57,109 nt of DNA from a virus. The translations under genes were made by a program, and so were the position numbers. This document shows positions 22,500 through 44,259 of the stretch, in pieces. A model generated the notes under the pieces. It saw nothing but the letters and a program-made list of their open reading frames with translations, was not told the origin of the DNA and did not search any database. The DNA is taken from positions 1-57,109 of the IMG/VR virus record IMGVR_UViG_3300029113_000006. One strand, given 5' to 3'. The first letter of the stretch is position 1. Every line of letters starts with the position of its first letter.

Positions 22500-22577
22500 T
22501 GGTGCTGCATAATGGATTTGAACCAATGTATGCCCGGTTATGAGCCGGATGCTCTAGCCTGACTGAGCTAATGCAAC
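22500..22577 (-). tRNA. tRNA with CAT anticodon (Met/fMet or Ile2), CCA encoded
   Basis: Hand fold: GTTGCAT/ATGCAGC acceptor, TAGCTCAGTCAGGCTAGAGCA D-arm, TCCGG-CTCATAA-CCGGG, GGTTCAAATCC T-loop, ACCA. Confidence 0.8.
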
Positions 22578-42293: not shown

Positions 42294-42644
42294 TTACTCC
42301 TCATCATCGTTCGTAATTTTTGGAATCGGCATCCAGAGCCTAACCTTTCCACGGTTATTTTCTTCTGTCCACTTTCCATCCTTAAACTCCCTCGTTGAAA
42401 CACAATCGTTCCAACGCCAAAATTTGTATACGGCAAAGTAGATTCCGTCTTTTTGCGGTTGTGAATCTTTTACGCTAATCCATCTTTGAGATAGATTCAC
42501 TGTTGGTAGTTCTTTCAGATGTTCAAGCTCGCTTTTCCACGCATCAGCAGACGGAAACCGAATGCCAACTTCATCTCGCTTTGCCAGATTGATAAGCCTA
42601 GTTAGGTACTTTTCCAGCGGTTCGATGTCAACAAGCCTGCTCAT
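42294..42644 (-). CDS. DUF551-like protein
   Basis: WISVKDSQP...VRLWMPIPK. Confidence 0.5.
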   Translation of the reverse strand: MSRLVDIEPLEKYLTRLINLAKRDEVGIRFPSADAWKSELEHLKELPTVNLSQRWISVKDSQPQKDGIYFAVYKFWRWNDCVSTREFKDGKWTEENNRGKVRLWMPIPKITNDDEE

Positions 42645-42859
42645 TCTCTCTCACCTCTAAATTCGCTTCCGAGATACCGCTTCTTACCACGCTCCCGGTG
42701 CTTGTCCTCATAGTCACGGTGGTACACGCTCTGGCTGTGGTTCAGCTCATACACGAATGCTTTGCGCTCCTCGAGGTCTTTCTTCTCTGCCTTGTACTTC
42801 TCGCAAGTGTCGTGGCAAGCTGTGCAGCGTAATTTGCAGTTGAGACAACAGGTAATCAT
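42641..42859 (-). CDS. Cys-rich 72-aa protein
   Basis: Start at internal ATG 42859, overlapping the methyltransferase stop; MITCCLNCKLRCTACHDTCEKY... Confidence 0.45.
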   Translation of the reverse strand: MITCCLNCKLRCTACHDTCEKYKAEKKDLEERKAFVYELNHSQSVYHRDYEDKHRERGKKRYLGSEFRGERE

Positions 42860-44259
42860 TCTTCGCCGAATCTCCTTTTTGTAACGGCAATGGGAAACTC
42901 TTCGATTTCGGAAGCCCATCGTGCCGTACCGTTTCCATAGGTCTTTTGCCAGACAAGTGGGAAGCCGCCTATACCGTCGAACAGGCTTCCTAGCGTGGCA
43001 TTTGTACTTAAATAGGGCTTCATCTTCTGTGCAATCCAGAACCATTGCGGTAGAGCAATGCTGTTTCCGAGTGCCTTGTAACGTGGGCTGTCAGCATACT
43101 TATGCTTCTTGCCTTTGCTGTCCGTCCATTCTCCAATGTCCGTCCATCCGTCCGGGTAGCCTTGTAGCCGTTCGCATTCAACAGGTGTCAGACGGCGAAC
43201 AATCCAACGGATAGCTTTTTCTGCAATCAGACACTCGCTGCCATTGCCGATGTTCCCGGCTTTTGCTTTCAAGGTTGAGCATTTGTCGCTTTCTTTGTAG
43301 TGACTGAAAGACTGTTCATTAAAGGTTTCGCGTTCGATTGCAATGGCCGTGTAGTCTGTGATTCTGTTTTCGTGGTCGCCCGTAATTGTTGGCACTATTT
43401 TGCCATCGCCGTTTCCGCGAGCATCATAAACAACAGGCTGAAACAATGTCTGGTCTTGGAGTGTTGAAAGCGTTGCGCTTTTTTCGGTTTGTACCAGAGC
43501 ACCTTTACCACCACCGGCGCATCCACTACGGATTTTCAGGGTGTAGGCTGCAGGTTCTGTGCATCGAGTCGAAGTCTCTCGATGGTCTGACTCCAATACT
43601 CGTCCAATTCCTTCTCTTCCAGACCTTCTTGTTCCTTCACTTTCTGCACCACCTGTGACAGAGTTCCTGGATTCCACCATTCGATCATATCCAGCAACGC
43701 TTGCTTCAGGAGTTCGGGCAAAGGTTTTCCACGCCGGGATGCTCTCACAAGAATTCCCTGACATGCTCGTGCGCTCAAATAGAATTTCTGAGGCACGTTG
43801 TCCTCCAAAATCTGCGACAAGAGCGATTCTTTTACGGCGTTGGGGGACTCCCCAATATTGAGCGTCAAGCTGTCTCCATGCCAAAGACCATCCGTTTCCG
43901 GCGATTGCTCCGGATTTGCTCCATCTGCCCCCCCTACCCGAAGGTCGAGGAATTGAAGCATCTGGTTGTTCCACGCTGGCAAGTTCTTCCAGCACGGCTC
44001 TGAAATCTTCTCCTCCGTTGGAACTGAATGCTCCGGGCACGTTTTCCCAAACAGCGAAAGTTGGATACATTCCATTGGTGGCTGTCCTCATTTCCTTAAT
44101 GATTCTTGCGGCATCCAAAAACAGCACGGAACGGTTGTCGTCAAATCCAAGCCTTTTCCCCGCCATAGACAAGCCCTGGCAAGGACTGCCGAACGTAATG
44201 CAATCCACCGGCTCTATCTTGTCGCCGTGAATCTTTGTGATGTCGCCCAAGTGTTTCAT
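42856..44259 (-). CDS. DNA (cytosine-5)-methyltransferase, circularly permuted (motifs IV-X followed by I-II)
   Basis: GSPCQ (aa 24-28), ENV (72-74), QRR (140-142), RLTPVECERLQGYPDGW (356-372), GNS (398-400), then LFDGIGGF (426-433) and ASEIE (449-453) at the C-terminus. Confidence 0.85.
   Translation of the reverse strand: MKHLGDITKIHGDKIEPVDCITFGSPCQGLSMAGKRLGFDDNRSVLFLDAARIIKEMRTATNGMYPTFAVWENVPGAFSSNGGEDFRAVLEELASVEQPDASIPRPSGRGGRWSKSGAIAGNGWSLAWRQLDAQYWGVPQRRKRIALVADFGGQRASEILFERTSMSGNSCESIPAWKTFARTPEASVAGYDRMVESRNSVTGGAESEGTRRSGREGIGRVLESDHRETSTRCTEPAAYTLKIRSGCAGGGKGALVQTEKSATLSTLQDQTLFQPVVYDARGNGDGKIVPTITGDHENRITDYTAIAIERETFNEQSFSHYKESDKCSTLKAKAGNIGNGSECLIAEKAIRWIVRRLTPVECERLQGYPDGWTDIGEWTDSKGKKHKYADSPRYKALGNSIALPQWFWIAQKMKPYLSTNATLGSLFDGIGGFPLVWQKTYGNGTARWASEIEEFPIAVTKRRFGEE
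43536..44075 (-). other. 179-codon ORF in the +1 frame, wholly inside the methyltransferase gene (possible overlapping gene)
   Basis: Longest same-strand alternate-frame ORF in the window; the C-terminal half is protein-like (LSQILEDNVPQKFYLSARACQGILVRASRRGKPLPELLKQAL...). Confidence 0.3.

Follow-up and report, generated by a model that had tools for sequence, protein, structure and literature searches.

Can one stretch of viral DNA encode a DNA methyltransferase and, in a second reading frame of the same strand, another protein? The question is raised by a 57,109-nucleotide stretch of viral DNA, positions 1 to 57,109 of the IMG/VR record IMGVR_UViG_3300029113_000006 (the window). The minus strand of the window holds both genes considered here, and all features described below lie on that strand. 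The first, frame A, is a single-chain C5 DNA methyltransferase (MTase) gene of 467 amino acids (aa) at 42856-44259; part of its translation reads QYWGVPQRRKRIALVADFGG. The second, frame B, is an open reading frame (ORF) of 179 codons plus a stop at 43536-44075, translated in part as NIGESPNAVKESLLSQILED. It lies wholly inside frame A, in the +1 frame.

The original prediction had pointed to this nested ORF without stating the strand, and it offered two explanations: either the overlapping gene is genuine, or frameshifts in a mosaic methyltransferase have left a relic. Both peptides that it quoted are found in the translations, and both frames are open over the same nucleotides. Frame B had also been called the longest alternate-frame ORF on its strand; no other ORF nested on the same strand reaches 150 aa in the window.

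Judged by how its sequence evolves, frame B is almost certainly a selected coding sequence. We lean towards a fuller explanation, in which B is a real, selected gene nested in the +1 frame of the MTase and its product is a separate small protein that would dock on the enzyme.

Selection on the nested reading frame

Relatives were gathered with a query made from frame A only, a frame-A protein alignment running from motif IV to just past motif VIII. This gave 160 loci from viral contigs and bacterial genomes, to which six annotated phage loci were joined. By local tblastn, 163 of 167 sequences have a homologue of frame B, placed +1 to frame A. Two of the remaining sequences carry B fused in frame to the N-terminus of A, and two are cut by contig ends. 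The named +1 loci are those of phage P1 (dmt), Vibrio CP-T1, Morganella vB_Mm5, Mycobacterium NihilNomen and Streptococcus Javan422. In each of these five phage loci the B match is +1 to the deposited coding sequence (CDS) and is open for 130-163 codons. Over 153 loci the median stop-to-stop ORF is 142 codons in the +1 frame and 29 codons in the +2 frame.

Such openness might need no second protein. Conservation in the +1 frame could be a by-product of frame A, an RNA or DNA element, or chance. For the leader of B this view has some force: its similarity is partly a shadow of the conserved ENVPG and QRRKR codons, and the periodicity of A dominates there. Faint echoes (for example 'T*LELEK') also occur in the +1 frame of the C5-MTase SPR. 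However, SPR and Matisse serve as controls, and their +1 frames are full of stops, whereas B is conserved in hosts as far apart as Streptococcus and Mycobacterium.

For a null expectation, synonymous codons were shuffled within each gene, which keeps the protein and the codon usage. The set comprised 32 single-chain genes of less than 70% identity. Over about 120 alignment columns the shuffles give about 70 stops in the +1 frame, whereas the real genes have 0. Pairwise identity of frame B is far above this null (z=9-68) exactly across the B ORF, and near it (z~0-3) in the rest of the gene.

The codon positions tell the two frames apart. In the B leader, the wobble base of A is the most variable position. 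Over the final ~40-50 codons of B, the third base of B is the most variable (0.37-0.54), and the second base of B, which is the wobble base of A, is the most conserved (0.70). In the final 30 columns B identity is 0.68/0.49, compared with 0.30/0.26 for A. Neither a passive shadow of frame A nor an RNA or DNA element would make the codon periodicity switch to frame B over the conserved module (described below); an RNA or DNA element would not leave B more conserved than A with the third positions of B variable. The view without a second protein thus keeps hardly any probability, and we regard it as effectively refuted by the shuffle null, the periodicity and the split relatives.

The alternative frame is therefore open and alignable, the synonymous constraint is confined to the overlap and the codon positions carry the signature of frame B. 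At the evolutionary level, a genuine overlapping gene is strongly supported. The three observations named beforehand as refuting it have all turned out the other way: B is uninterrupted in its homologues, these homologues number in the thousands, and A shows excess synonymous constraint.

The family is broad. More than 5,900 B proteins occur in a set of 5.8 billion sequences (5,167 representatives at 50% clustering), and the hosts include Bacillota, Actinomycetota, Akkermansia and Planctomycetota. Plasmids carry the module too: there are 532 of them, mostly P1-like. B is seen exclusively inside MTase genes.

A second clade of C5-MTases repeats the pattern. It includes the Streptococcus phages Javan159 and IPP52 and the Clostridioides phage phiCD508, and its frame A shares ~30% identity with that of the window. 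We fetched 83 loci, of which 80 were analysable (the clade's loci are L176, L177, L182 and L183-L262). The +1 ORF is open for 143-209 codons in 80 of 80 loci, compared with 19 codons in the +2 frame. It always ends 33-34 codons past the Gln of motif VIII, with the pattern ...SE.PKTE..S.LSDILE.EVDEKYYLS.EK..IL. The switch in codon periodicity from A to B occurs here too. A profile of the second clade matches B of the first clade with a probability of 98.3% (E=1.7e-14), part of which must stem from the homology of frame A.

The ORF is unannotated or mis-annotated in P1 dmt, Streptococcus prophages and gut phages because standard annotation forbids fully nested genes on the same strand. Despite the missing annotation, about 5,000 clusters of the B product are already in sequence databases. 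Gene callers that pick B truncate the methyltransferase. In Catenibacterium mitsuokai (GCA_052117865.1; locus L173, 2167-4014) the calls are frame B (130 aa, 'hypothetical protein') and a C-terminal piece of the MTase (373 aa). The whole region is nonetheless covered by an intact frame-A ORF of 615 aa, and the caller chose B over the N-terminal half of the MTase. Elsewhere B itself is labelled 'DNA methyltransferase'. This is the label of phrog_16143 (139 positions), the only family found with B in a PHROGs search. It matches the module of 14 of 23 diverse frame-B proteins (residues 64-109 of B in the window). PHROG 16143 is probably a family of frame-B products and not of methyltransferase domains.

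Annotation of methylases is uneven in mycobacteriophages. In NihilNomen (genes 123-125) the annotation divides the Omegavirus methylase into two CDSs, with an HNH endonuclease after them, and the feature note of the Schatzie methylase reads 'coding region not determined'. In Mycobacterium phage Ovechkin (methylase gp69 region; locus L178) the +1 frame of a 237-aa 'DNA methylase' CDS continues beyond the end of the CDS and carries repeated 'LPTP.A(S/R)..' motifs (SSSLPTPRAS..., LLPTPVARDFKGTG). This looks like a different arrangement, out of frame or continuing downstream.

Start signals and product of frame B

If B is a gene of its own, then it should have a start of its own. The candidate start is an ATG at 44073-44075, formed by the AAT-GGA (Asn-Gly) codons of A. 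A Shine-Dalgarno (SD)-like motif, AAGGAAATGAGG (44086-44097, core GAGG at 44086-44089), lies 10 nucleotides (nt) upstream. The motif includes a frame-B TGA (44088-44090) that closes the +1 frame upstream.

These signals are conserved in position. In 113 of 153 loci the ATG is fixed at -29 nt from the Glu codon of ENV (motif VI), and in most loci a +1-frame TGA and the string GAAATGAGG come before it. In frame A this string encodes (K)EMR. For its Arg, 25 of 26 divergent genes use AGG, which has a gene-wide share of 14%. The A codon that creates the ATG (Asn, Asp or His) is NAT in 26 of 32 divergent genes, and all 26 yield ATG. The SD-like columns show excess nucleotide conservation (z=18). Both ATG and GAGG appear to arise through biased synonymous choices in A.

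The B product could also be reached by frameshifting. The module would then be made by slippage at a G tract or by a ribosomal +1 shift, and the resulting truncated-MTase fusion would act as a regulator or a dominant negative. Natural G6 and G9 variants do encode such fusions (201-241 aa, PF00145 plus B), on dozens of contigs from independent samples. However, the G tract is restricted to some lineages, and frameshifting would need neither the conserved ATG and SD-like motif nor the stop-free +1 codons upstream of the module. Since ~70 weakly conserved +1 codons stay open between the ATG and the module, initiation at B's own start is favoured over frameshift entry. No conserved slippery site was noticed, though no search was aimed at one. 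We consider frameshift expression quite improbable. From the start signals, B in the window is likely to be translated from its own ATG.

The best conserved part of B is a small, basic module of residues 62-135 (TLNIGESPNAVKESLLSQILEDNVPQKFYLSARACQGILVRASRRGKPLPELLKQAL; 43671-43892), defined by conservation, B-frame periodicity and predicted helices. Residues L86, L90, A104, G107, R111, P120, L123 and L127 are invariant. The invariant and near-invariant residues lie in ...ES.LSQILE..VP.KYYLS.KAC.GILRRA.KRGK.LP..L..AL. The original prediction had likened B to a similar pattern (..ILE..KYYLS.KAC.GIL.RA..RGK.LP..) in methylase-associated proteins of Firmicutes mobile elements. The pattern is real; it is found in frame-B products and in long beta proteins that begin with B. 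An AlphaFold2 model of B, built with 106 diverse homologues, is confident only at residues ~85-134, which are helical with a predicted local distance difference test score (pLDDT) of 80-89. Residues 136-179 (43539-43670) form a lineage-specific tail, present in close relatives only, with predicted helices at 139-150 and 155-174.

The two frames share their nucleotides unequally. The B leader overlaps motif VI of frame A (ENV; 44038-44046), and B residues ~78-83 overlap motif VIII (QRRKR; 43828-43842). B had been described as low-complexity over motifs VI-VIII, which agrees with a prediction of disorder for residues 1-80. Where B is well formed, A had been described as a linker rich in S, G, E and R. 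This linker (A residues 162-239; 43543-43776) is the out-of-frame reading of the B module and tail. In BLASTP it does not align with a canonical relative, and among homologues the pairwise identity of A is 0.26-0.30 in this region, compared with 0.49-0.68 for B over the same nucleotides. As also noticed before, frame B stops just where ordered A resumes: its stop falls at '...AAYTLKIRSG' of frame A, from where A becomes alignable again.

B is not a duplicated piece of A because hhalign shows no paralogy between the two (probability 0.15%). We also considered B as a restriction-modification controller (C) protein with a helix-turn-helix (HTH) and as a Vsr-like protein. Both roles were dropped; B shows no similarity to either, Pfam and NCBIfam give no HTH, and Foldseek gives nothing with E below 2.

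The N-terminus of B in the window (MECIQLSLFGK) holds QLSLF at residues 5-9 (44049-44063), an exact match to the beta-clamp-binding consensus QL[SD]LF. Motifs of the type Q[LIVM]x[LIMF][FYLW] occur in 33 of 132 B proteins, always in the first ~15 residues; 0.6 are expected by shuffling. The motif is lineage-restricted and not conserved across the family. Some lineages gained clamp-like motifs (QLTLFD, QVSLFD, QLDLF) via insertions that frame A tolerates. In NihilNomen (locus L006) frame B begins MTSDQLDLFP..., with an exact QLDLF match. It is doubtful that QLSLF binds the sliding clamp, and the assignment comes from the consensus.

Could B be genuine and yet have nothing to do with methylation? 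For example, as a clamp binder it might hinder host replication or tether to it, and it would be nested for co-expression. The exact QL[SD]LF match and the acquisition of similar N-terminal motifs in several lineages suggest as much. However, about 75% of B proteins lack the motif. The best conserved part is the C-terminal module, which in split relatives is a covalent part of the MTase small domain, and B is seen only within MTase genes. We consider an independent job quite improbable.

Architectures of the methyltransferase

What could a nested protein do for the enzyme that surrounds it? Frame A belongs to the C5-MTases. The profiles PF00145 (DNA_methylase) and TIGR00675 match it with 123.4 bits (cut-off 22) and 112.9 bits (cut-off 100.65), and the catalytic and S-adenosylmethionine (AdoMet) motifs I, IV, VI, VIII, IX and X are all found: FDGIGG at 427-432, PCQ at 26-28, ENV at 72-74, QRRKR at 140-144, RRLTPVE at 355-361 and YKALGNS at ~394-400.

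The motifs do not follow the canonical order from I to X. Their order is III-IV-VI-VIII-target recognition domain (TRD)-IX-X-I-II. The N-terminus (MKHLGDITK...) falls between motifs II and III, and the C-terminus consists of motifs I and II (LGSLFDGIGGFPL...WASEIEEFPIAVTKRRFGEE), with FDGIGG and WASEIE at 42901-42981. In BLASTP, residues 419-464 of frame A match a canonical relative at its residues 5-48 (E=6e-10), and residue 1 pairs with residue 51 there. By this arrangement of motifs, frame A is a natural 'Type B' circular permutant. Because the AlphaFold2 model of frame A is poor (mean pLDDT 30, from a shallow alignment of 30 sequences that are at least 90% identical), it is the sequence that speaks for a permuted fold and for a disordered A linker.

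The permutation is shared with FP_Toutatis, a Faecalibacterium phage, and with many gut-phage contigs of ~57-60 kb. FP_Toutatis is the closest named relative of the window at the protein level; the best DNA identity of a 2-kb test region to GenBank phage records is only ~84%. A protein 100% identical to the 467-aa frame A is carried by 51 public contigs, and with dozens of contigs sharing an identical MTase the window appears to be a very common human-gut phage. Downstream, a 134-codon ORF (42641-43045) overlaps the final ~190 nt of the MTase gene. In relatives, its counterpart is a called gene of 72 aa that starts at about the MTase stop (L167, 3900-4118). The long ORF is hence probably not real. 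The window also has one tRNA-Met (CAT) gene at 22500-22577.

The role of B is suggested by relatives in which the enzyme is split. In 19 of 153 loci frame A ends 31-109 codons past motif VIII, and frame B goes on for 195-465 codons, taking in the TRD, motif IX (RRLTPLECERLQGFPDGW; RRLTPxECxRLQGFPD) and motif X (YKALGNS). Because frame A stops after motif VIII while frame B continues to motif X, we read these loci as split enzymes. Their alpha chain comprises motifs I-VIII and their beta chain the B leader, the module, the TRD and motifs IX-X, as their sequences show. The beta ORF starts ~115 codons into alpha, upstream of motif VI.

Five loci of Anaerovorax, Tissierella and Schnuerera, four of them in isolate genomes, all have the end of frame A at the same place, 31 codons past the Gln of motif VIII. 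Since this end is constant, the split form is a stable architecture and not an error. Long beta proteins are also found in the databases. Among the best 150 of the 5,167 cluster representatives, 58 are at least 280 aa long with B at the N-terminus, and none of these has the alpha motifs PCQ or ENVPG. All five long beta proteins that we read reach motifs IX and X; two permuted ones (P0354 and P0364) end with motifs I-II. We had thought that B never joins anything in frame, an idea that the split relatives overturned. By sequence, B is the leader plus the pre-TRD module, the front end of the small-domain subunit of the enzyme.

In the window and most relatives (120 of 153) frame A is continuous to motif X, and B ends as a separate short ORF. 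Frame A would then be read straight through as a single chain, in which the module region becomes a floppy linker. B would be made as a separate 179-aa protein from its own SD-like motif and ATG inside the MTase mRNA. The free B may dock on the methyltransferase that hosts it and supply or regulate the pre-TRD module. By analogy with two-chain enzymes, the chances seem about even that the MTase has B as a subunit or partner.

Alternatively, B may work only as the N-terminus of a long beta chain, and the short ORF may be kept as a spare part because lineages often flip architecture. Split and single-chain forms are indeed interspersed among close relatives with one-base tract differences, and long beta proteins are very common in databases. 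However, most single-chain genes have no tract at the module end (the window, Javan422, P1 dmt and the Vibrio and Morganella phages). The very strong constraint and periodicity came from single-chain genes and short B ORFs only, and single-chain genes keep the start codon, the SD-like motif and the openness upstream. The clade of the window has even added the 44-residue helical tail to the short B. We find it unlikely that the short ORF is only a spare part.

Several observations weigh against a separate protein that docks on the enzyme. Translation of B is a prediction from sequence in every member, and part of the selection seen on B in single-chain genes may stem from periods in which the lineages were split. 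The N-terminal 80 residues of B are predicted to be disordered and are weakly constrained beyond what frame A demands, and the scarcity of QLSLF-type motifs counts here too. Profile searches with B in Pfam, NCBIfam and PADLOC give no family; the best matches (Pfam E=0.0049, PADLOC E=0.00097) each come from a single B protein and point to an unrelated family. A sequence-profile search of the PDB gives one spurious match (E=0.64), and Foldseek of the B model against the PDB gives nothing with E below 2. The control MTases SPR and Matisse carry an LxDILE..KYYL-like motif in frame (SPR 211-241, RLKDLLEEYVDEKYYLNEDK; Matisse, VGDILEPDNDQYTISDRAWKG). SPR 211-241 is the best hhalign match to B, but at P=0.01 and a probability of 4%, so that homology of the module to an in-frame element after motif VIII of canonical MTases is only suggestive. 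The association of A and B is argued from analogy and from the split relatives, with a frame A model of low pLDDT, and G7 is short for a classical phase-variable (contingency) tract.

This G7 tract (C7 on the plus strand; 43928-43934) lies between motifs VI and VIII and is the first of two frame-switch hotspots. Runs of at least seven G or C occur at 0.43/kb in the B span, compared with 0.07/kb elsewhere in the same genes, a six-fold difference. The two sites lie 83-126 nt past ENV, where the window has its G7, and 160-198 nt past the Gln of motif VIII, at the module end. Long G/C tracts cluster at these hotspots on either side of the B module. In unrelated lineages the dual-coding segment has tracts of G17 (L160), G10 (L124), G9 and C10 (L030), G9 (L087), C9 (L043) and G8 (L078/L086). 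The idea that the G tract is peculiar to the clade of the window was overturned by these other lineages.

Tract length sets the frame of the MTase. Two relatives (L167/L168) have a B that is 100% identical to that of the window over the shared region, but G6 joins the N-terminus of A to the C-terminus of B. The G6 fusion proteins (P0028 and P0042) are 240 aa long. A related clade has the same G6/G7 pair; its G6 protein, P0042, occurs on 24 contigs, which come from many samples. The full-length form of 467 aa is commoner than the fusion form. L169-172 also have G6, and FP_Toutatis has G9 and two annotated 'methyltransferase' CDSs. At the module end, the single-chain and split forms of three lineages differ as G7 versus G8 (L080 vs L078/L086, L024/L027 vs L026 and L035 vs L150). 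Near-identical genomes hence differ in homopolymer length, which changes the frame of the MTase; this is variation between genomes. A slip from G7 to G6 would put frame A into frame B and make a fusion of the N-terminal MTase with B, in which methylation is most likely off.

The relic idea is right in a small part. Relatives do differ by frameshifts at G/C tracts. However, both architectures keep B intact, and there is no decay.

A bolder view unites these observations in a 'two-frame' gene. The tracts would reversibly re-partition the locus into a single chain plus free B, a split alpha/beta enzyme or an off-state fusion. B would be an obligatory trans-acting piece of the small domain, and in lineages with an N-terminal QL[SD]LF it would also anchor the enzyme at replication forks through the sliding clamp. 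We regard this view as speculative and rather unlikely. If true, it would amount to phase variation of quaternary structure, beyond on/off, with a dual-coding segment of ~130 codons, and clamp tethering would be a bacterial and phage analogue of DNMT1-PCNA coupling.

If B is required or regulatory, then heterologous expression, from codon-optimised genes, of phage methyltransferases and those of integrative and conjugative elements (ICEs) would silently delete B. Methylome assignment, phage engineering and epigenetic tools would be affected. The family also offers a natural series (single-chain, split, fused-off and circularly permuted) for the study of how enzymes are split and rejoined by frameshift. 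As a prokaryotic overlapping gene that is deeply conserved and has a plausible function, it is also a case that can be tested.

Comparison with known systems

Is such an arrangement new? Our literature searches surfaced M.EcoHK31I, M.AquI and out-of-frame HNH endonucleases as precedents, and no description of the nested B ORF. Nested or overlapping ORFs for pieces of C5-MTases are already known, from the two enzymes M.EcoHK31I and M.AquI. Four things were not found in these searches: a very widespread phage and ICE family, including P1 dmt, that is built with a nested ORF; an apparently complete single-chain MTase that still keeps the nested ORF as a short gene; a nested MTase product with the pre-TRD module instead of motif IX; and a dual-coding segment flanked on both sides by homopolymer tracts that switch the architecture.

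M.EcoHK31I is the closest precedent for nesting. Its beta chain is encoded wholly in another frame of alpha, binds alpha and is needed for activity (Lee, Kam & Shaw 1995, as described in PMC2836561). The first ~40 residues of beta are dispensable for activity in vitro, their progressive deletion weakens the association with alpha, and beta is reported to carry motif IX, which is absent from alpha (PMC2836561). The likeness is that the nested product is a piece of the enzyme that associates with the large chain, and the dispensable N-terminus of beta resembles the disordered leader of B. In contrast, frame A of the window has a motif IX of its own (RRLTPVECERLQGYPD) and has the look of a whole enzyme in one chain, and B carries the pre-TRD module. 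The arrangement is hence not strictly of the EcoHK31I type, a comparison made by description and not by sequence.

M.AquI is a natural alpha/beta C5-methyltransferase (Karreman & de Waard 1990, cited via PMC3404938). The 19 split relatives resemble it, with motifs I-VIII in alpha and the module, TRD and motifs IX-X in beta. The alpha and beta ORFs of M.AquI reportedly overlap. Here, however, the early start of beta inside alpha, before motif VI, makes the overlap very long. Furthermore, in most of the family (the window among them) the enzyme is fused again into a single chain, and the nested ORF is kept as a short gene of its own.

The spanin genes Rz/Rz1 of phage lambda show that one gene can lie wholly inside another in the +1 frame of the same strand and that the two products can cooperate physically. 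Full +1 nesting, which guarantees co-inheritance, is common to both systems. However, the function is unrelated, and Rz1 is not a detachable part of the Rz fold.

Phasevarions rely on phase-variable DNA methyltransferases with homopolymeric tracts. Similarly, the coding G tract varies between G6, G7 and G9 among near-identical genomes and shifts the MTase frame. In contrast to phasevarions, the other frame is itself coding here, so that a slip would give a defined fusion or split enzyme and not a plain truncation, and the tract is short (7).

Out-of-frame coding inside methylase genes also occurs in mycobacteriophages, where the 'ShiLan domain' is an HNH endonuclease inserted, out of frame, in the methylase gene (PMC11855218). 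ShiLan is a mobile homing insertion, patchy in distribution and in the third frame, whereas B is ancient, vertically conserved and without nuclease motifs.

Finally, the permuted order of frame A has an engineered counterpart. 'Type B' permutants were made of M.MpeI and M.SssI, and cp62M.MpeI was the most active (Slaska-Kiss et al. 2018; PMC5944983). The same work found no natural Type B permutants among the C5-MTases of REBASE (PMC5944983). Frame A of the window has the topology of cp62M.MpeI, with its start between motifs II and III and motifs I-II last. Unlike the engineered enzymes, it is natural and abundant, with the identical protein on all 51 contigs noted above. The window thus supplies a natural Type B permutant, a form predicted to be viable by the engineering work.

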